Shown here in pieces: positions 16,700-57,736 of a DNA stretch of 64,000 nt. Where the stretch lies: the sequence record PP886230, one strand, 5' to 3'. This DNA is from Escherichia phage vB_EcoM_E9.1. Within the stretch, counting starts at the first letter, position 1, and every line of letters starts with the position of its first letter. The position numbers were made by a program, and so were the translations under genes. Below the pieces are notes generated by a model. The model saw only the letters and a list, made by a program, of their open reading frames with translations, did no database searches and was not told where the DNA came from.

Positions 16700-16727
16700 T
16701 TGACATAAGATATCAGTACTGTATAAT
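16700..16727 (+). promoter_or_regulatory. sigma70-type promoter with CAGTACTG in spacer
   Basis: TTGACA, 16-nt spacer ending in CAGTACTG, TATAAT, then GTTTATATC. Confidence 0.65.
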
Positions 16728-22599: not shown

Positions 22600-22791
22600 A
22601 TGTTGATTTATCAAAGTGATAATATTCGTGTTATGCAGCATCCCTACTTACAAATCTTTGATGTGCAGCAGTATATGGAAGGTGATGACCCAAGAACCTA
22701 TGGTCGTAAGTATGATTACTTCACTGTAAAGCAGTGTAAAAATATTAACGAAGTACGACAATTAGTTCAAGAACTTCAAAACAAAGGTTGA
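22600..22791 (+). CDS. hypothetical protein
   Basis: ORF ~63 aa; ATG 22600 after AAGGA; TGA stop lies inside the TTGACT of the downstream module. Confidence 0.5.
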   Translation: MLIYQSDNIRVMQHPYLQIFDVQQYMEGDDPRTYGRKYDYFTVKQCKNINEVRQLVQELQNKG

Positions 22792-48616: not shown

Positions 48617-49756
48617 TTATTTCCACGGTAGAAGTGAATCAGGAACCCTTGTTGGTACAGTAGTTGAAGACATTCCAGTAAGATTGGGTACACCACATGT
48701 GTATAAATTATTATATTCGTCAACTAACATCGTATAAGAATAGCTCTTACAAAAACTACTAAGATTACTACCTTCTAATGCAGTAAGATCCATTTCAGCG
48801 AATGATGTTATATACATATCAGTTGTACCAATACCACATTGACCATTTGAATTAAGGCCACATGAAAATAACTTATTATTATTATTAATTATACAGGATG
48901 GTCCGGTAAGGTTTGTCCCAAGCTCACCCACCAACTCCACTTCTCCTTGGAATGATAAATTTGGAATTAATGTACTCATTGGGGCTACTGACCTATTTCC
49001 TGTACCTGCTTGTCCATAGTCGTTAATAGATGCAACTTTAACATTACCATCATTAAGAAATATATAAGAAGTTTCATTTGTATTGACTGCTTTAATTGCA
49101 TTACTAATCGAAGTATCTTGTGTAAATGTGAGCAAGTTTTGTGTCGTCGTTCCTGATACAAACGTTCTACCTGCATACCAATATGAACCATCATTTAGTA
49201 CTAATCCAGTACTATATATTGCACAACCAGCACTGATAACATTTTCTATTGTACTATAGGTGAATCGTGAAACGCTTGAAGTTGATCCATTCCCAAAAAC
49301 ACCACCAGTACCAGCACCACAGTAGAACCACTTTCCATTTTTTAAAAATACACGCATACACGAAGATATCACAACACTATCAATATCATCTGCACTGACA
49401 CCGAAATCAGTAAAGTTCTGTGTTATATCAACCCAAACGCCGTTAGTGTTTGAAGATAGTATTGGAATAACAGTACGTCTACCAGTGTACCAAATAGTAC
49501 CATCTTTCTTTATAGCAATTGTTCCTTGTACCCCACCCCAATATCGTGTAACATTTGAGTTGACAAGAGTCCATTCAGTTGAAGAGTCCAATGAACCATT
49601 ACCACTTTGTCCATATGCTGAAGAACCAAACCAATATAGATTGCCATTTGTGTGTAAATAAAATTTGGCATCAGCAGAACATTGTAACCTGTTTTTAGGT
49701 AGAATCAGTTCAGGTGCGATATTCCCGTACTTAACCATTCTTGCAAAAGGTAACAT
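48617..49756 (-). CDS. RCC1-like repeat protein, array member 5
   Basis: ~380 aa from MLPFARMVKYGNIAP (track start 49918 runs through the control element); motifs YGQSGNGS, NGQCGIGT, YGQAGTGN. Confidence 0.8.
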   Translation of the reverse strand: MLPFARMVKYGNIAPELILPKNRLQCSADAKFYLHTNGNLYWFGSSAYGQSGNGSLDSSTEWTLVNSNVTRYWGGVQGTIAIKKDGTIWYTGRRTVIPILSSNTNGVWVDITQNFTDFGVSADDIDSVVISSCMRVFLKNGKWFYCGAGTGGVFGNGSTSSVSRFTYSTIENVISAGCAIYSTGLVLNDGSYWYAGRTFVSGTTTQNLLTFTQDTSISNAIKAVNTNETSYIFLNDGNVKVASINDYGQAGTGNRSVAPMSTLIPNLSFQGEVELVGELGTNLTGPSCIINNNNKLFSCGLNSNGQCGIGTTDMYITSFAEMDLTALEGSNLSSFCKSYSYTMLVDEYNNLYTCGVPNLTGMSSTTVPTRVPDSLLPWK

Positions 49757-49826
49757 ATTCCCTCCTTTATTTGTTATACTATATTTAATACAAATAAGAA
49801 AGCCAGTACAGTGTACTGGCATTATG
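49757..49826 (-). promoter_or_regulatory. array control element
   Basis: Near-identical copy. Confidence 0.6.
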
Positions 49827-50936
49827 TTATTTTGGTAAATCAATTTTAGTAAAGACTGCAACATCCTCGATTGCACCTGGAATGGCGTAATACGATCCAG
49901 TACTATACACATCTCCATTTTTGGTTAATATCGATGTCAAACCATCACTAAAAAGAACATCCCTAATCTCACTAACTTCAACGGGTAATTGTAAATTGGT
50001 AGCACTATATATAGCACCAGTTTGAGAATTGTTTAATCCCAAACCACGGTTCGCCCCAACACCCTTCTGATATGTACTAGTAATTACCATTTGTGTAGCA
50101 GTATTTAAGGCAGGTGAATTCGTCATAAACAATGGAGAACTATTAGGCAAAGTACTTACAGGAACTGCACGGAATGTAGTCGTACCTGAACTAAGAAAGT
50201 TTGGAGTTTGACCACATACGAAATATGATGTACCATTATAGTAATTTAATGCATTACCACCAATGGCTGCATCGATTACACCAGAACTACGCAATCCCCA
50301 AGTGTTAATTTGTGTTTGGTTCCCCGTACCATGCTGCCCACTACTATTCCATCCAGAACTATATAGCTTATTATCTAATGTAAGATACATACTATCATTC
50401 GCATTGGTCATTACTTTACGAACGTTCGTAGCACATTGAGTTAATGTGTAAATTGATGAGGAACCAATACCCAAAGAACCACGATATCCATTATCTCCTG
50501 CACCATAGAGTACTGAATTAGTGCTAAGTACAAATATTAAACCATTTGTACATACAATATTAGCAATTTCACTTACTGGTATAGCATTGGTAAACCAATT
50601 AGTTCTTTCAACTAATACAGTACTGTAAGAAGTAGTTGTAGAAGATGAGAACCAGTACGTTTGACCTGATGTCCATATCGTATTATCATTTTTAATAATA
50701 ACAAGTGTACGATCACCCACGAAAAAATTAGAAACATCTGCACTTACTAATGTCCACGAAGACACCGTGTTGGTATTACCATTTCCAGATTCACCACCTT
50801 GATTTCTACCTATGTAATATAAATCATGTGAATCAGTCAATAAGAATTGGCCTTGGGTAGAAGCACCAACTTTAATTATTTTTTTAGGACCAGGGACAAT
50901 ATTTCCATACCTAATCATTCTTCCAAAAGGTAACAT
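49827..50936 (-). CDS. RCC1-like repeat protein, array member 4
   Basis: ~370 aa from MLPFGRMIRYGNIVP; motifs GGESGNGN, SGQHGTGN; start 8 nt after upstream stop, with AGGAGG inside the end of the upstream gene. Confidence 0.75.
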   Translation of the reverse strand: MLPFGRMIRYGNIVPGPKKIIKVGASTQGQFLLTDSHDLYYIGRNQGGESGNGNTNTVSSWTLVSADVSNFFVGDRTLVIIKNDNTIWTSGQTYWFSSSTTTSYSTVLVERTNWFTNAIPVSEIANIVCTNGLIFVLSTNSVLYGAGDNGYRGSLGIGSSSIYTLTQCATNVRKVMTNANDSMYLTLDNKLYSSGWNSSGQHGTGNQTQINTWGLRSSGVIDAAIGGNALNYYNGTSYFVCGQTPNFLSSGTTTFRAVPVSTLPNSSPLFMTNSPALNTATQMVITSTYQKGVGANRGLGLNNSQTGAIYSATNLQLPVEVSEIRDVLFSDGLTSILTKNGDVYSTGSYYAIPGAIEDVAVFTKIDLPK

Positions 50937-50944
50937 ATTCCCTC

Positions 50945-52147
50945 CTATTGTTGCCATAACTGCGTTGGCATTAATGTTAGTGTAGTAATACTATAAGTGC
51001 CATCTGGCAATCTACCACCATTTCCATTCCAGCCACCACATGCATATAATTTATAATCTTTAGTAATTATTATGGTTCTGCTCCAATCTTTAGATGCCAT
51101 AAGAACATTGTCATAACCACCACTTATTGCACTAAGATTAAAAATATTCCAAGTTCTAACTAATGTATTAGTTCCATTACCTTCTTGACCATATGAGTTA
51201 GCACCACTACTTCTAACATATGGTGCGTATTGTGCCATAGGTGCACCAATTGATGCATTTCCCATATTACTTGGACAAATAAAAGTACTGTACTTACTTA
51301 CATCAACCGTGACCGATGTGTTCCTAATTGGTGTTAGCTGATTTACCGATGTAGTCGTACCATTACCAGCTTGTCCAGAACTGTTAGCCCCGCTATAATA
51401 TACAGACCCACCAGTAGTAAACCACCAAGTAACATCGTATGTAGTACTAATATGTTCTACATTACTAATCACGAATTTGTTCAAATATACAACAGAACTA
51501 CCACCACATCCACTTTCACCAAAGTTATCCTTACCACAAAACCATGCATCTTTATTTGATTTGATATAGTGCGTTCCTTGTAATGAACATGCCATATGTG
51601 TAACTTCACCCATATTAGTCATAACTGTGAGTGTAGGGATGGAATTTTTATTCCCAGAGCCACATTCACCATTAGTATTTCTTCCACACGCAATTACTCT
51701 ACCATCGGTTAATAATATTCTAGTACTTTCACCTATATATACACTCTTGATCATATTAGCCATAACACCTATTTTATTAAATGCAACAGTAACATCAGTC
51801 CATGTTGTCAAATAACCATTAACAGGTGTTGCATCTCCATAATCAGAAAATGCACCCACAGACCCAGTGTAGTATATTTTATTATCCAAATCAATCATCA
51901 ATGAACCTTGAACACCAAGCCAAAAGGCTGCACAGTTCCTTGCAAGTACTGTAAATGACGAAACTGCTGCTGAATTCCCAAGACCAAATTGATAAAAGTT
52001 ATTACTACCATAACCATATAAAGTATTAGTTGGGTTATGGAGATACATACAGTTTGTATAATGTTGTTGTAAAACATCTGAGAACTCTACAGGTTCTGGA
52101 CCTGGTGCAATATTTGCGTACTTAACCATTCTTCCAAAAGGTAACAT
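50945..52147 (-). CDS. RCC1-like repeat protein, array member 3
   Basis: 400 aa; leader MLPFGRMVKYANIAP; motifs FYQFGLGNS, NGECGSGN, SGQAGNGT, YGQEGNGT. Confidence 0.8.
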   Translation of the reverse strand: MLPFGRMVKYANIAPGPEPVEFSDVLQQHYTNCMYLHNPTNTLYGYGSNNFYQFGLGNSAAVSSFTVLARNCAAFWLGVQGSLMIDLDNKIYYTGSVGAFSDYGDATPVNGYLTTWTDVTVAFNKIGVMANMIKSVYIGESTRILLTDGRVIACGRNTNGECGSGNKNSIPTLTVMTNMGEVTHMACSLQGTHYIKSNKDAWFCGKDNFGESGCGGSSVVYLNKFVISNVEHISTTYDVTWWFTTGGSVYYSGANSSGQAGNGTTTSVNQLTPIRNTSVTVDVSKYSTFICPSNMGNASIGAPMAQYAPYVRSSGANSYGQEGNGTNTLVRTWNIFNLSAISGGYDNVLMASKDWSRTIIITKDYKLYACGGWNGNGGRLPDGTYSITTLTLMPTQLWQQ

Positions 52148-52218
52148 ATTTCCCTCCTTTATTCATTATACTATATTTAATACAAAAAGAAATGCCAGTA
52201 TCAAGTACTGGCATAATA
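52148..52218 (-). promoter_or_regulatory. array control element
   Basis: Near-identical copy. Confidence 0.6.
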
Positions 52219-53397
52219 TTATCGGTTAAATTTAAAATCTGTTATGTGTGTCCATGTATGATTTAATGGGGTACTCATTGGTGTAAAGCCAGCAGGGTCT
52301 GACAAAGCTGTACCACGTGCGTACATAAATTGATTGCCAGTACAATCCATTATAGCATAAGAACGTGTTGCTGTGCCACATTTGAACCCAACTGCACTAC
52401 TTGGGGTCGGTAATACTTCAAATGTAGGTGCATTTGAACTACCACCCCCATCTTTTGTTCCAGCTATGTACAGAACTCCATTAGTATCAATGATTAAGTT
52501 AGTCCAATATGCTTGTTCTCGACCAGCATAAAAATATGTTAAATCACCGGGTACAAATGGTAACGTTCCTTTATATATTGTAGTATTAACATTCACTGGT
52601 GCACCAGCTACACCCCATGAACTCATATAGTTTCTCCCACTTGAGTAGAATGTAGTTCCTTTACCGTAAAGTATTAATGTTGCTTGACTTGTTCGCATTG
52701 CATTATATTCAAACTCAGGATCATCAGTAGCGTCCTTAAAAATCTGTGTCCATGTTGTTATATTACCAGTAGTCGTAACACCCATTTGATAATAATAATT
52801 ATCACCAGTAGCATAGAATTCTTTAGGGCCAGTTTGTACAATTGCATTCCCATTAGTTAACCAAAAATCTAATGTATTAGTCTTGATCTTGGTTGGTGTG
52901 TAATTCGCCACGGTATTTCCTTTTCCGAAATAACCATTAGCGTTATTTCCATGACCCCATAAATCACCATTAGTTGTGCGTAGGAATAATGTACCAGTAT
53001 TGAATCCAACTTTTTCTATAGTACTTATGTCAATACCAACAGTCGTGTACTTCGTTGTAAAATCTTGAAAAGTACTCCAATAATTAGATGAACCATTAAA
53101 CATGGTTTGTCTACCAGTGTACTTCACTTTATTATCGTTAGTGATAAGTAATGTCCCCCACACTGACGCGAACATTAACTTAACATTTTCCATAACAAAG
53201 TATGGCTTACCGTATGCTGACGCGGTAGTGTTTAAACCTAATAGTTGTCCATCATTACTACAACCCCATACTTCGCCGTTATCCAAAAGCATCAACATAG
53301 TAGGTTTGCCGGATGATACATCCAAAAAGAAATCTTTTGGTGTTGGTACGCCCGGTGCTTCATTTCCATAATTCAACATTCTTCCAAAAGGTAACAT
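52219..53397 (-). CDS. RCC1-like (divergent) repeat protein, array member 2
   Basis: 392 aa; leader MLPFGRMLNYGNEAP; weaker repeat motifs (ANGYFGKGN). Confidence 0.7.
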   Translation of the reverse strand: MLPFGRMLNYGNEAPGVPTPKDFFLDVSSGKPTMLMLLDNGEVWGCSNDGQLLGLNTTASAYGKPYFVMENVKLMFASVWGTLLITNDNKVKYTGRQTMFNGSSNYWSTFQDFTTKYTTVGIDISTIEKVGFNTGTLFLRTTNGDLWGHGNNANGYFGKGNTVANYTPTKIKTNTLDFWLTNGNAIVQTGPKEFYATGDNYYYQMGVTTTGNITTWTQIFKDATDDPEFEYNAMRTSQATLILYGKGTTFYSSGRNYMSSWGVAGAPVNVNTTIYKGTLPFVPGDLTYFYAGREQAYWTNLIIDTNGVLYIAGTKDGGGSSNAPTFEVLPTPSSAVGFKCGTATRSYAIMDCTGNQFMYARGTALSDPAGFTPMSTPLNHTWTHITDFKFNR

Positions 53398-53466
53398 AGT
53401 TCCTCCTTTATCATTATACTATATTTAATACAAATAAGAAAGCCAGTATCAAGTACTGGCATCGTA
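53398..53466 (-). promoter_or_regulatory. array control element
   Basis: Near-identical copy. Confidence 0.6.
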
Positions 53467-54576
53467 TTACTTGGGTAATGGAATTGTGGTCCATCTATTT
53501 GCGGCAACGTCACCTGGTACATATGTAGGACTACCACTTACAGCAATAGTTTCATTACCATCATATACAACACTGAAGTTTGTGCACGTATACAACGCTG
53601 CGGCATCTGGATTGTAATTTTCAAGTGTTAGTGTATTGGTGAACAAATTCAATGCAGTAGTTGAGCCGTTTTTACCATATGCACCTGTAGTATATATCTT
53701 TCCTTCTGTTGTTGAGTACATATTAACATATGACCCAGATGATGATTTAGCAATTTTATCTATCTTGCTATCTATTGTTTTAGAGTTAAATTGAAATGGA
53801 TATACCTGTACGTTAGTATCTAAACCATTTCCCAGTTCCCCATTTAACTGCCACCCTGTGTGGTACATTCCCGCATTTGTATATGCAAGCGTACTATACG
53901 CATTACCACCCATTATTTTAGTGCCAGATAATTTTAAACCAAACGATGTCCACTTACCAGTTTCATTTCCTATGGAACCATAAGCACTTGTACCACACGC
54001 ACGAAGCTCGCCATTTGACGTTAGAAGCACTGTATTATTAACGTTACCAAATATATCAATAACCTGATTAGTGCCATTATTCAGTACTGAAGTAAAAGTA
54101 CTCTGTGAGTAAGTACTACCTGAACCAACAGAACCATTTGTGTTCATACCTCTTCCATATACAATTTTACCATCAGCACTAACATAGTGCATTGAATCAA
54201 AACCAATGGATATCATTTTAATATCAGATATATCTGGAAATGAAGAAGTTACATCTACTCCACCTAGTGGAATTGTATTATTTCCTAAACCTAATGAGAC
54301 ATTAGTTCCGTGCATTATAAATTTATCTTCTTTAAAATATAAAATATTATATCCACCAGCCCATGCATTATTAACGCCATTTGTAATCAGTACCCATTTA
54401 TTTTGTGTAGTAGTTCCAGTAATATTTAACTGTTGATAGTTATTGATTCCACAACCATATAGCGATCCATCACCATATAGTACATATAAATTATCATATC
54501 CTGCAATAACTTTCTTTATTTTTTTGGGTACAGGTGCTACATTCCCATACTTTAACATTCTTCCAAAAGGTAACAT
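53467..54576 (-). CDS. RCC1-like repeat protein, array member 1
   Basis: 369 aa; leader MLPFGRMLKYGNVAP; motifs NGSVGSGS, NGELGNGL. Confidence 0.75.
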   Translation of the reverse strand: MLPFGRMLKYGNVAPVPKKIKKVIAGYDNLYVLYGDGSLYGCGINNYQQLNITGTTTQNKWVLITNGVNNAWAGGYNILYFKEDKFIMHGTNVSLGLGNNTIPLGGVDVTSSFPDISDIKMISIGFDSMHYVSADGKIVYGRGMNTNGSVGSGSTYSQSTFTSVLNNGTNQVIDIFGNVNNTVLLTSNGELRACGTSAYGSIGNETGKWTSFGLKLSGTKIMGGNAYSTLAYTNAGMYHTGWQLNGELGNGLDTNVQVYPFQFNSKTIDSKIDKIAKSSSGSYVNMYSTTEGKIYTTGAYGKNGSTTALNLFTNTLTLENYNPDAAALYTCTNFSVVYDGNETIAVSGSPTYVPGDVAANRWTTIPLPK

Positions 54577-54625
54577 TATTTTCTCCTTTATTCATTATAT
54601 CATATTTACCTCCTAACGAAAACCC

Positions 54626-54654
54626 TTGACATTCTTTCAGTACTGGTGTACTAT
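54626..54654 (+). promoter_or_regulatory. sigma70-type promoter driving the plus-strand small-gene array
   Basis: TTGACA, 17-nt spacer containing CAGTACTG, TG-extended TACTAT, then AAGGAG and ATG 54680; back-to-back with the first array gene. Confidence 0.55.
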
Positions 54655-54679
54655 AGAAGGAATATAAGGAGAACTACAC

Positions 54680-54907
54680 ATGACAAATACTCTTAAGTAC
54701 TACCTCAATACTCTAAATGAACTAGAGTACGGGGAATTTCTCGCGGATAGTTCGTGGCTAATTGAGCTAAAAAATTATAATAGTCCAGGATGCACCCTTA
54801 TGATGAACAATGCAATTGATACCCTCATTGTGAGTATTTTACACAGCAACATCTGCGGGGATAGCAATAAACAATTATCAAAAATCTTAGTACTGCTATC
54901 TATATGA
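54680..54907 (+). CDS. array-S small protein (first member, divergent)
   Basis: ORF 75 aa; N-terminal YY..L motif; hydrophobic C-terminal tail. Confidence 0.5.
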   Translation: MTNTLKYYLNTLNELEYGEFLADSSWLIELKNYNSPGCTLMMNNAIDTLIVSILHSNICGDSNKQLSKILVLLSI

Positions 54908-55107
54908 ATATCGAACAGTACTACATCGATGCACTACCAACAAAAGGTCTACGTGAAAGCCTACTGCATACACAAACTAATTTCAAACACCTCAAACGTA
55001 GCCCTAAACTCCTGAACTCGTACAGGAATAATAACATAAGAAATGCTTTACAAGGGGTAGAATGTATGCAATACTATTACATCCTTACCCTATTAATCGA
55101 GTACTAA
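54904..55107 (+). CDS. array-S small paralog
   Basis: ORF 67 aa; MNIEQYYIDALP..YYYILTLLIEY. Confidence 0.55.
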   Translation: MNIEQYYIDALPTKGLRESLLHTQTNFKHLKRSPKLLNSYRNNNIRNALQGVECMQYYYILTLLIEY

Positions 55108-55108
55108 T

Positions 55109-55318
55109 ATGAATACTGAACATAAAGAATTCTACACCAAATACCTTAGCAACGAAGAACAATTGTTTCTAAGGAGTGTATCACCTGTAAGTACCAATAC
55201 TCAATTCGGTAGAGATTGCTTTAATAATTGTATACGTAGTACTCTAGAAGCAATCGAATGCAATAACAAAAATATTATGTACTCAGGTTTAATAGGACTA
55301 ATATATTTCTATGAATAA
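55109..55318 (+). CDS. array-S small paralog
   Basis: ORF 69 aa; MNTEHKEFYTKYLS..GLIGLIYFYE; closest to ORF 58690. Confidence 0.6.
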   Translation: MNTEHKEFYTKYLSNEEQLFLRSVSPVSTNTQFGRDCFNNCIRSTLEAIECNNKNIMYSGLIGLIYFYE

Positions 55319-55505
55319 TCATAAAGATTTCTATTGTAGTAAACTACCCAAACAAGAACAGCTATCATTCTCTTTAGCACCACCTATGAGAAAGGATAAT
55401 CTGTATTATAATTACGATTTCAGGATGGTGACACGTTATGCAATAGAACATCAGTTCCCTGAAACTAAGTACCGCTCTATCCTGAACCTCATCTTTAAGT
55501 TCTAA
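55311..55505 (+). CDS. array-S small paralog
   Basis: ORF 64 aa; MNNHKDFYCSKLP..LNLIFKF. Confidence 0.55.
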   Translation: MNNHKDFYCSKLPKQEQLSFSLAPPMRKDNLYYNYDFRMVTRYAIEHQFPETKYRSILNLIFKF

Positions 55506-55557
55506 AAGGTACACCAGGGACCGAGTACTTTAATATAGTAAGGCTAATTACATTATA

Positions 55558-55743
55558 ATGAATCATATAAGCTACTACTACCAACAACTATCCGACAGAG
55601 ACAAGTACAGTCACAACTCCCATGTGTGGTACTACAAACGCGGCAGTATAAGAGACAAACAACATTACTTCTGTATTTCTATTAAAGAAGCACTGACAAC
55701 TAAGTACACGTACCGAGCAGTACTTAAACTTATTGAAATGTAA
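55558..55743 (+). CDS. array-S small paralog
   Basis: ORF 61 aa; ..KYTYRAVLKLIEM. Confidence 0.55.
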   Translation: MNHISYYYQQLSDRDKYSHNSHVWYYKRGSIRDKQHYFCISIKEALTTKYTYRAVLKLIEM

Positions 55744-55753
55744 AGAGAATACT

Positions 55754-55936
55754 ATGAACATTGAATTGTACTTAAGTAAATTACAGCCTGGCGATAGATT
55801 CATCTACAATAAGTTCGAATTCAACTACAAGAACGGGAGCAACAAATATCGTCGAGGATACCTATATACAAGCACAAGAGATGCACAAAACGAAAAGTAC
55901 ACATACAGAGAAGTACTTAAACTAATCTCTATTTGA
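55754..55936 (+). CDS. array-S small paralog
   Basis: ~60 aa from MNIELYLSKL; ..EKYTYREVLKLISI. Confidence 0.55.
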   Translation: MNIELYLSKLQPGDRFIYNKFEFNYKNGSNKYRRGYLYTSTRDAQNEKYTYREVLKLISI

Positions 55937-55944
55937 GGTAATAT

Positions 55945-56130
55945 ATGAATACATTTGAGTACTATACCAATAAACTATCTATGCCTGAAAGATCTCATCT
56001 CTATGTGTGGAGAAATGCGTATAAAAGCGGCAATAAACTTATACAAAGAAATTCCCTTACAGTGTGTACAAATTTAATTAAAGCAGAGTACCGCACATAT
56101 ATTGAAGTACTCAAACTGATAGCAATATAA
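55945..56130 (+). CDS. array-S small paralog
   Basis: ORF 61 aa; MNTFEYYTNKLS..YIEVLKLIAI. Confidence 0.6.
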   Translation: MNTFEYYTNKLSMPERSHLYVWRNAYKSGNKLIQRNSLTVCTNLIKAEYRTYIEVLKLIAI

Positions 56131-56138
56131 GGTACTCT

Positions 56139-56318
56139 ATGCAAGAATTCTATATCTATAACCTCCAGCACAAAGATAGATACAACTATAATAAATTCCA
56201 AAGGTACTACACAGTCGGGAACAAAAGAGATAAAAAACGTTATCTACTCTCGTGTACAGTAGAAGCACAAAACGAAAAGTACACGTACAGAGAAGTACTT
56301 AAACTAATCTCAATCTAA
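56139..56318 (+). CDS. array-S small paralog (59 aa, missed by the ORF track)
   Basis: MQEFYIYNLQ..EKYTYREVLKLISI; C-terminal 14 aa identical to ORF 55754. Confidence 0.55.
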   Translation: MQEFYIYNLQHKDRYNYNKFQRYYTVGNKRDKKRYLLSCTVEAQNEKYTYREVLKLISI

Positions 56319-56325
56319 GGTAGAC

Positions 56326-56514
56326 ATGAACACTTTTGAGTACTACTTCAATAAACTAAACCACATAGAACAAAGTATGCACCACACATTTATTCAGAAC
56401 CATCAATCATCTTCACCTCTAATTAAAAACATATCGATTGAGATTATCACTACCCGTGTACAGTCATCTGAACGTTATATGTATATTGATGTACTGAAAC
56501 TCATCTCTATGTAA
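56326..56514 (+). CDS. array-S small paralog
   Basis: ORF 62 aa; MNTFEYYFNKLN..YIDVLKLISM. Confidence 0.6.
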   Translation: MNTFEYYFNKLNHIEQSMHHTFIQNHQSSSPLIKNISIEIITTRVQSSERYMYIDVLKLISM

Positions 56515-56522
56515 GGAATACT

Positions 56523-56702
56523 ATGCAACAATTCTATAGAGAACACATAAGCATTAAAGACCGTTTCATGTACGACACCTTCGTGAAGTACTACAAACTA
56601 GGAACAAAAAGTACTAAAAATATTAATCTCAATAGCTGCATTTATGCTGTACTAACACAAGATAATCCCTACAGGGAAATCATTGCCCTGGCATCTATAT
56701 AA
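56523..56702 (+). CDS. array-S small paralog (59 aa, missed by the ORF track)
   Basis: MQQFYREHISIKDRFMYDTFVKYY..PYREIIALASI. Confidence 0.5.
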   Translation: MQQFYREHISIKDRFMYDTFVKYYKLGTKSTKNINLNSCIYAVLTQDNPYREIIALASI

Positions 56703-56712
56703 AGGAAACCAA

Positions 56713-57372
56713 ATGAAACTTAATCCACACAGCAAACAATACCTTAAGCACTTTAAATACCTCAACAGTATTCAAGCAGAATCTTTTACACCAGCATATA
56801 CGTATCACCCAAATGTACTAAAGAAACGAAATAAAAAGAAAAAATCCAGAAATGTTCTCGTATCTAAGAACCTCAAATCGTACTTGAAGAAAAATAATAT
56901 AGCTCTTGCTTTTATTAATATCTATAATACTGATTTAAAAGTATTGAGTACTAATACCAGCACAAAAGCACTAAAGAATGCATCTATCTATATACACATG
57001 GATAATATCCCGTGCACTATAATTCTATCTTTCGGGAATGTATACTTCTTCGGGAATTGTAATAGCACCCATGATATCAGTACTGCACAATTCCAAATCG
57101 GCGATATGTACTGCATGGGTTCAGAAAAAATACACGATAACATGCACTTCTTCCAAAAGCAACGTACTAACGAAACTGATACAGTACTGCAATTCCTAAA
57201 AGAACTACAAAACAAAGAATTAACACCAGAAGAAGAATTCATGTACAGTACTGTAATCGATAATCCAGAACTCTATAAAAACGCGTACAATCTAACAAAA
57301 CATGTACAGGAACTTATCAGTACTGATAAGAAATTTCATCACCTCATTACGTATATTTCAAACTATGTATAA
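56713..57372 (+). CDS. larger protein embedded in array-S
   Basis: ~219 aa from MKLNPHSKQYLKHFKYLN (track start 56683); basic N-terminus; unrelated to the 60-aa units by eye. Confidence 0.55.
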   Translation: MKLNPHSKQYLKHFKYLNSIQAESFTPAYTYHPNVLKKRNKKKKSRNVLVSKNLKSYLKKNNIALAFINIYNTDLKVLSTNTSTKALKNASIYIHMDNIPCTIILSFGNVYFFGNCNSTHDISTAQFQIGDMYCMGSEKIHDNMHFFQKQRTNETDTVLQFLKELQNKELTPEEEFMYSTVIDNPELYKNAYNLTKHVQELISTDKKFHHLITYISNYV

Positions 57373-57547
57373 AGAATACTACAAAGATAAAATCCCAATG
57401 CATCTACAACACCATATACCAAACGTTGCATTGGGTATCAAAGATCACGCAAAGATAATGTTCCAACAATGTACTAAGTACACGCTCATATACGATGATA
57501 ATCCATATATGCTGTACTACGTAGTAATGCTAACATTCAGGTACTAA
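57365..57547 (+). CDS. array-S small paralog
   Basis: ~60 aa from MYKEYYKDKIPMHLQHHIPNVALGI..VVMLTFRY. Confidence 0.55.
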   Translation: MYKEYYKDKIPMHLQHHIPNVALGIKDHAKIMFQQCTKYTLIYDDNPYMLYYVVMLTFRY

Positions 57548-57548
57548 T

Positions 57549-57728
57549 ATGAATACTTATAAAGAATTCTACCTCTCGTACCTTAATTCCGATATAGTAA
57601 CATCCAATACATTCAGTACTAAAATTATCTATAATGAATTAATGAAAGAATGTATTAAAGGTGCTATTAACCCTAAAGATACGTATGACTTGTACTATGC
57701 AGTACTAACCCTTGTTTTCACGAAATAA
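57549..57728 (+). CDS. array-S small paralog (59 aa, missed by the ORF track)
   Basis: MNTYKEFYLSYLNS..YYAVLTLVFTK; ATG one nt after previous stop. Confidence 0.5.
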   Translation: MNTYKEFYLSYLNSDIVTSNTFSTKIIYNELMKECIKGAINPKDTYDLYYAVLTLVFTK

Positions 57729-57736
57729 CACATAAT

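Follow-up and report, generated by a model that had tools for sequence, protein, structure and literature searches.

A divergent spacer in an Asteriusvirus jumbo phage probably pairs a host sigma-70 early promoter with an independent T4-type late promoter

We analysed a stretch of 64,000 nucleotides from Escherichia phage vB_EcoM_E9.1 (record PP886230), referred to here as the window. Judged by sequence comparison, the window belongs to a PBECO4/121Q-type jumbo coliphage of the genus Asteriusvirus, one of the Rak2-like T4 relatives. The 3-kb stretch around the locus described here shows 99.9% identity to Escherichia phage SHEFM2K and 87-99% identity to more than 30 records of the PBECO4/121Q/phAPEC6 type (Asteriusvirus). 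The window opens with a block of small plus-strand genes, for which related records carry annotations such as RpoD-like sigma factor, protein kinase and endonuclease V. This block is followed by an island of minus-strand genes and then by an array of small plus-strand genes. The two arrays diverge from a spacer, hereafter the hub, and the features of the hub and its surroundings are collected in Table 1. Conservation of the hub was assessed in an alignment of 14 related genomes.

Table 1. Features of the hub and its surroundings, with positions in the 64,000-nucleotide window.
Feature	Position	Strand	Evidence or remark
Block of small genes	1-40.4 kb	+	ORF list
Minus-strand island, 12-13 genes, 14 kb	40462-54576	-	mostly RCC1-like by Pfam and PHROG
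Intrinsic terminator, GCCAGTACTTGATACTGGC then TTTCTTATTT	53442..53460	-	terminator scan; -13.8 kcal/mol, z = -4.1
First (rightmost) RCC1-like gene, 369 aa	53467..54576	-	N-terminus MLPFGRMLKYGN, found array-wide
Hub, 103-bp spacer between the arrays	54577-54679	both	exactly from ATG (54576, -) to ATG (54680, +)
RBS of the first RCC1-like gene, AAAGGAGA	54582..54589	-	4/8 columns invariant in 14 genomes
Candidate extended -10, TGATATAAT	54594..54602	-	perfect TGnTATAAT consensus in the sequence; intact in 11/14 genomes
TAAATA core	54603..54608	-	6/6 positions invariant in 14 genomes; nTAAATA, putative T4-type late core
A-tract AACGAAAACCC, UP-like, directly 5' of the -35		54615..54625		AAAAC.C invariant in 14 genomes
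-35 TTGACA, 6/6	54626..54631	+	sequence and promoter scan; invariant in 14 genomes
CAGTACTG palindrome, about -23 to -16	54638..54645		inside the rightward promoter spacer
-10 TACTAT, 4/6	54649..54654	+	promoter scan
RBS AAGGAG, 8 nt 5' of ATG 54680	54666..54671	+	sequence; near-invariant in 14 genomes
First small gene	54680..54907	+	ORF list
Small-gene array, 24 tightly packed genes	54680..59471	+	23 paralogues of 59-81 aa and one 229-aa gene
Likely internal promoter of the small-gene array, TTGACA-17-TATCAT	58247	+	promoter scan; AGTACTG abuts the -10
Equivalent of the left genome end	59745		fEgEco12 base 1 aligns here, 96% identity over 3 kb

The product of the first RCC1-like gene matches Pfam RCC1_2 (8e-11) and WD40_RLD (4e-23) as well as PHROG 4219 (6.5e-66), and its SHEFM2K counterpart, M2K_0248, is annotated as a regulator of chromosome condensation. 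All members of the array have the N-terminus MLPFGRM(L/I/V)KYGN in common, and at their 5' ends about 60 nt of the coding sequence are almost identical, while the gene bodies diverge (27% identity between paralogues). The same N-terminus is found on the member at 45326-46081, which encodes a Gly-rich, non-RCC1 protein (PHROG 4474). This common N-terminus may be a virion-targeting or attachment segment that is kept uniform through gene conversion.

The RCC1-like genes are punctuated by a repeated control element with the consensus TAAATATAGTATAATGAATAAAGGAGGGAAATATG (longer form ATTAAATATAGTATAATGAATAAAGGAGGGAAATATG). On the coding strand the full element consists of a stem-loop, GCCAGTAC-N3-5-GTACTGGC, followed by TTTCTTATTT, then GTATTAAATATAGTATAATGAAT, and finally AAAGGAGG and the ATG. 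The terminator scan recognised the stem-loops as intrinsic terminators, and their folding energies are -12 to -14 kcal/mol (z about -4 relative to shuffled sequences). By its sequence, the element as a whole is a putative cassette of terminator, promoter and RBS. It is carried by 9/11 tallied RCC1 genes, as eight full copies and the one copy in the hub, and the other two genes either overlap their upstream neighbour or follow it after a gap of 8 nt. Eight of the ten tallied RCC1 genes downstream of the first one have a promoter of their own. Given these promoters and the terminator behind the first gene, the leftward promoter of the hub would serve this one gene only. The RCC1 array would thus be made up of about nine separate transcription units, each with promoter, gene and terminator, and not of one regulated unit.

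On the other side of the hub, several of the small paralogues match PHROG 11711, and the 229-aa gene corresponds to PHROG 29152. The Pfam and PHROG searches offered no function for the small proteins, and Pfam returned no match at all. The paralogues start with M-x-K-E-F/Y-Y and end in a hydrophobic ...LLLIYRY, and the stop and start codons of neighbouring genes mostly overlap or lie a few nt apart.

Base 1 of fEgEco12 is a physical genome end, established by PhageTerm and restriction digests, and marks the start of a direct terminal repeat of 20,993 bp. By this alignment, the terminal-repeat boundary of the window phage is probably located just past the small-gene array, beside a small hairpin, GGCAGAGGAAGTCTGCC. 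The hub itself had come into consideration as the edge of a long direct terminal repeat, as several long records place it ~26 kb before their end, and that of phage A4 begins at window position 54578. This idea was rejected, since the fEgEco12 end maps ~5 kb to the right of the hub. A stretch of ~1.9 kb (59472-61400), where the terminal repeat presumably begins, is nearly free of ORFs. The region from 59472 to 63500 holds the densest cluster of the CAGTACTG palindrome, with 16 copies in 4 kb of which several are paired 26-72 nt apart. It also contains consensus promoters at 60110 and 63208 (12/12) and repeated segments such as ...AGGGTGCGGGAG, and Rfam gave no match within it. Over the whole window Rfam reported three tRNAs only and no RNA element in the spacer. 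As RNA folds of the spacer were also not better than those of shuffles (z -1.4 and -1.9), we rejected the spacer as an RNA element.

The nearest genes that might feed transcription into the arrays are distant: upstream there is no plus-strand gene for 14 kb, and rightward there is no minus-strand gene for about 5 kb. Because no outside gene would be able to feed transcription, both transcripts should begin within the spacer.

For the rightward direction, the sequence-only reading had described a promoter made of TTGACA and TG-TACTAT with CAGTACTG in its spacer. Both hexamers stand, separated by a 17-nt spacer that encloses CAGTACTG, but the TG does not hold as part of an extended -10. It abuts the hexamer (TGTACTAT) and is thereby one base off the register of TGnTATAAT, and the promoter scan scored the site as 'no TG'. 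An extended -10 TG is an optional feature of sigma-70 promoters. In the 14 genomes, the -10 is fixed at positions 1, 2, 5 and 6 (TA..AT) and variable at positions 3 and 4 (TACAAT, TAGAAT), so that the bases kept are exactly those important for sigma-70. More generally, the -35, the TA..AT of the -10, TAAATA and both RBSs are fully or nearly invariant across the 14 genomes, whereas the sequence between them is variable. Transcription from this promoter would start near 54661.

The distribution of such sites in the window points in the same direction. The plus strand holds 50 strong sigma-70-like sites, where Markov simulations gave 21 +/- 3.4, and the minus strand holds 11. The 2.4-fold enrichment on the plus strand agrees with the orientation of the small early-type genes. 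TTGAC[AT] was found upstream of 14/98 plus-strand genes of the window, of 2/33 genes in the structural region of phAPEC6 and of 0/11 RCC1 genes. In relatives from the clade, RpoD-like promoters precede short early gene blocks (PMC5259590), and reliance on host RNA polymerase has been described (PMC7318152). We found no description of promoter mapping or transcript data for Asteriusvirus in the searchable literature. Taken from its sequence and conservation, the rightward element is most likely a host sigma-70-type early promoter.

The leftward direction is served by a different kind of element. Read on the minus strand, the hub carries TAAATATGATATAATGAATAAAGGAGAAAATAATG, in which no -35-like hexamer is present for the leftward promoter. 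The gene classes segregate in the opposite sense when TAAATA is counted: at a distance of 10-60 nt, the motif precedes 9/11 RCC1 genes and 14/33 genes in the phAPEC6 structural region, as opposed to 3/98 plus-strand genes of the window. In phAPEC6, the genes for capsid, scaffold/protease, baseplate and endonuclease VII, together with other late genes, have (T)ATAAATA 17-50 nt before the ATG; gp228 has CTAAATA instead of ATAAATA. An ATAAATA motif before structural genes was likewise noted in CBB and GAP32 and likened to T4 TATAAATA (PMC5259590). The late-type core of the hub, GGTAAATA, matches T4 TATAAATA at 6/8 positions and reads GTAAATA, and the full ATAAATA was found upstream of 0/11 RCC1 genes. 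With regard to a factor that could read such promoters, phAPEC6 gp237c is annotated as 'Sigma factor for late transcription', and a gp55-like factor, but no homologue of T4 gp33 or gp45, was reported for CBB (PMC5259590).

Two RCC1-like proteins of phAPEC6, gp551 and gp549, the latter encoded at the hub position, were detected in virions by mass spectrometry, and GAP32 gp1 was likewise found in virions (PMC5259590). The first RCC1 gene of the window encodes a paralogue different from phAPEC6 gp549, with 27-43% identity beyond the shared N-terminus, and its presence in virions is therefore suggested by family and not by orthologue. Late timing fits these products. On the strength of its conservation in the 14 genomes, its match to known late genes and the segregation by gene class, we favour TAAATA as the core of a T4-type late promoter, from which transcription would start near 54596.

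The alternative for the leftward direction is TGATATAAT, read from 54602 to 54594 by sigma-70 as a -35-independent extended -10, which would be active early or throughout, either alone or in addition to a late promoter. The element is a perfect match to the consensus, its TG is created by an AG-to-GA change relative to the array copies, and most of the aligned genomes retain it intact (11 of 14). However, A4 has lost the TG (TAGTATAAT), and critical bases of the TATAAT are damaged in three genomes, ph0011 (GATGAT) and JNE01/Turkey5 (TATAAC), while TAAATA is kept in all 14. One copy within the RCC1 array also has TATAAC, yet its TAAATA is intact. In addition, with a start 7 nt past TATAAT the mRNA would have next to no leader ahead of the RBS, and the products of the family are virion proteins. 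We therefore prefer TAAATA and consider leftward transcription from TGATATAAT unlikely, although a perfect extended -10 could add some sigma-70 transcription in this direction. At the RBS of the first RCC1 gene the GGAG core is present in most of the 14 genomes, and some of the apparent variation stems from the placement of adjacent gaps. A minus-strand mini-ORF in the spacer (AGGAGG-N5-ATGATATAA) was dismissed, as its AGGAGG is not conserved in the 14 genomes.

A further claim of the sequence-only reading was that the spacer harbours, for leftward expression, a degenerate version of the array control element. Such a copy is indeed present: the minus strand reads GGTAAATATGATATAATGAATAAAGGAGAAAATAATG against the consensus ATTAAATATAGTATAATGAATAAAGGAGGGAAATATG, without a working hairpin and T-run. 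The repeat finder grouped 54533-54652 with the array elements in one 120-nt family (68% ungapped identity). When spacer and full element were aligned with MAFFT, CCAGTAC paired with the 5' arm of the terminator, GGG and TTTTCGTT paired with its GGC and T-run, and a 6-nt insertion lay in between. On the minus strand, the A-tract upstream of the rightward -35 reads GGGTTTTCGTT and aligns with this same GGC and T-run. Of the stem, AGTAC-N4-GTACT (54639-54652) is left, which lacks the GCC/GGC clamp and is followed on the minus strand by AAAGAATG with no T-run, and the terminator scan called nothing within 54577-54679. The spacer thus looks like a decayed copy of the array element in which the former terminator part no longer acts as a terminator. 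The other strand of the decayed portion carries the rightward -35 and -10. For the hairpin part, homology to the array terminator is suggestive but unproven, because CAGTAC is so common in the window.

The palindrome CAGTACTG is hyper-abundant. The window holds 51 copies against about 0.7-0.9 expected from shuffles, a roughly 70-fold excess. The shorter AGTACT occurs 227 times against 22 expected (~10-fold) and GTAC 600 times against 204. The excess extends to relatives, with 20 copies of CAGTACTG in the structural region of phAPEC6 at 125-175 kb (0.5 expected) and 18 in Turkey3 (0.3 expected), and beyond the genus to Klebsiella phage K64-1, where 62 copies lie within 180-230 kb (0.4 expected). 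Two thirds of the copies in the window fall within genes, in all three frames, and the motif is 2.4-fold enriched in non-coding DNA; on both grounds an origin as a by-product of coding was rejected. Between the window and Turkey3, 78% of AGTACT sites are fully conserved as opposed to 52% of the background (p about 1e-5), and for GTAC the values are 78% and 62%. The flanks of CAGTACTG are rich in T/A and lengthen the palindrome, which takes the form TCAGTACTGA 16 times.

Some AGTACT copies are placed in a fixed relation to promoters. The distance from the end of AGTACT to the -10 is 1-2 nt in 7/61 promoter-like sites of the window (0.22 expected per offset), in 9/62 of K64-1 and in 3/24 of Turkey3. 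These sites form a promoter subclass of the type TTGACA-N9-CAGTACTG-TATAAT or TTGACA-N9-(C)AGTACTG-TATAAT, or else ...CAGTACTGG-CATAAT and ...AGTACTGG-CATAAT, in which the palindrome abuts the -10. Members in the window lie at 16700, 21014, 31343, 58247, 60110, 62870 and 63042(-). The subclass is common to Asteriusvirus and Alcyoneusvirus, and both genera encode an RpoD-like sigma factor. Another recurrent arrangement on the plus strand of the window fuses terminator and promoter (AAAGGGTTGACTTCGGTCAGCCCTTTTTGCTATAAT at 22788, 26031, 26214, 28617, 32904, 34186 and 36444). Here the -35 (TTGACT) lies within the stem of a terminator hairpin with a UUCG loop, and TATAAT follows 17-18 nt later.

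The CAGTACTG copy of the hub stands outside the common register of the subclass: its distance to the -10 is 3 nt, and that to the -35 is 6 nt where 9 would be usual. All of the 12 closer genomes have this copy unchanged, and it is degenerate in JNE01 and Turkey5, both of which keep the -35 and the -10. As 4/9 other spacer positions vary among the 12 closer genomes (about p = 0.05 by hand calculation), a local constraint on this copy is possible. Judged by its distribution, the hub palindrome is best described as one copy of a clade-wide palindrome that appears to be selected throughout the genome, and not as an operator specific to the hub.

These findings bear on the proposal of the sequence-only reading that both arrays are co-regulated from one site, for which the CAGTACTG palindrome and the array element are the candidates. 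In its favour, just 17 bp separate the two promoters, CAGTAC/GTACTG half sites occur in the array elements as well, where they are terminator stems upstream of each TAAATA, and the palindrome does not vary among the 12 close relatives. However, the elements do not overlap, the last position of TAAATA being 54608 and the first of the -35 being 54626, and the 17 bp between them are the least conserved part of the spacer (11 bases there vary among the 14 genomes, along with the first bases of the rightward spacer). No region-specific binding site was found over or between both promoters; CAGTACTG occurs within the rightward spacer only, 29 bp from TAAATA, and most of its 51 copies in the window sit within genes. 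JNE01 and Turkey5 have lost it and retained both promoters, and the half sites of the array copies have another geometry, with 3-5 nt between them. Moreover, the promoter classes differ, as the TAAATA and TTGAC[AT] counts illustrate, and almost all RCC1 genes come with a promoter and a terminator each, so that no single site would control the RCC1 array. With separate elements of different classes, an autonomous array and a palindrome spread over the genome, co-regulation could not be upheld, and we regard a shared control site as very improbable.

A role for CAGTACTG at the rightward promoter alone would be compatible with two independent promoters and could be added to that explanation. In this case the palindrome would be bound by a phage factor or by the RpoD-like sigma factor of the phage and would switch the small-gene operon off or on in the course of infection, with a like role at the other promoters that contain CAGTACTG. 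The phage does encode such a sigma factor, AGTACT adjoins the -10 more often than expected in the window, K64-1 and Turkey3, its sites are conserved above background (78% vs 52%), and the flanks extend the palindrome. Against this, the hub copy departs from the usual register, the motif is dispensable at the hub in two relatives, and about two thirds of all copies are intragenic in all three frames. As most copies lie within genes, promoter control cannot be the main role of CAGTACTG. We hold a factor acting at the hub copy to be rather unlikely, if conceivable. A more specific version, in which CAGTACTG is here a working instance of a 'self' signal common to the clade of Rak2-like jumbo phages and a putative phage factor uses it to switch the 24-gene operon, appears quite unlikely to us. 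The traits that speak of such a signal are a spacing of about one per kb, conservation above background, its occurrence across Escherichia and Klebsiella phage genera, its participation in terminator stems and its place against the -10 in a promoter subclass.

Hyper-abundant short genomic signals are known from Chi in E. coli and from the DNA uptake sequences of Neisseria and Haemophilus. By pattern only, CAGTACTG resembles these in being an 8-mer that occurs ~1 per 1.2 kb, within genes in all frames as well as in non-coding DNA. Its halves also form inverted pairs in terminator stems, and it is conserved above background and across genera. Unlike Chi and the uptake sequences, it is palindromic and viral and tied to -10 elements in a promoter subclass, and we know of no cognate machinery for it. 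The same segments are depleted of other short words. GCGC is completely absent from the window, the phAPEC6 region, Turkey3 and the K64-1 segment, where 57, 43, 22 and 29 copies were expected, and GATC, GGCC, CCGG and CTAG are under-represented there too. The absence of GCGC suggests strong selection against a GCGC-specific nuclease, either of the host or of the phage itself. We found no description of the AGTACT/CAGTACTG excess or of the lack of GCGC in the searchable literature, where the bare text of CAGTACTG returned primer noise.

The promoter elements, their conservation, their segregation by gene class and the array terminators were observed directly. From them we infer the start sites, the timing and the sigma factor reading each promoter. 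Our preferred explanation, to which we assign a probability of roughly 0.7, is that a host sigma-70 early promoter directed rightward stands back-to-back with an independent, non-overlapping T4-type late promoter directed leftward. The A-tract, TTGACA, the 17-nt spacer and TACTAT would be used by host sigma-70 to start an early transcript of the 24 small genes, heading for the terminal repeat. The nTAAATA core would be read by host RNA polymerase carrying a gp55-like late sigma factor of the phage, giving an mRNA with a short leader and a single RCC1-like virion-protein gene, which stops at the terminator behind that gene. The two outputs of the hub would thereby be separated in time, the rightward one being early and the leftward one late.

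In T4, early genes are transcribed from sigma-70 promoters, and late genes from gp55 promoters with TATAAATA. The hub resembles T4 and the predictions for the Rak2-like phages CBB and GAP32 in that TTGACA/TATAAT-type promoters precede short early gene blocks, a -35-less (T)ATAAATA-like motif precedes virion genes and a gp55-like sigma factor is encoded. Unlike in T4, the motif of the RCC1 array and the hub is nTAAATA (TTAAATA or GTAAATA), followed by a TATAAT outside the T4 consensus. With two divergent promoters within about 100 bp, whose inferred starts lie about 65 bp apart, the hub is also similar to classical bacterial divergent operons. It differs from those with a shared operator in that no shared or overlapping site was found, its sole palindrome lies in one promoter and occurs genome-wide, and its promoters are of different classes.

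The hub is most likely an unannotated example of a familiar arrangement, namely a divergent junction equipped with T4-style early and late promoters. It gives a concrete and conserved early/late promoter pair for a genus of jumbo coliphages, which is useful for annotation, and since a single 103-bp fragment reports on both promoter classes it is a compact test bed. It also corrects the view of the RCC1 array as one regulated unit. The unexpected items lie outside the hub proper: the clade-wide excess of AGTACT/CAGTACTG and the complete lack of GCGC, both of which extend across genera, suggest an undiscovered sequence-reading function in these phages.
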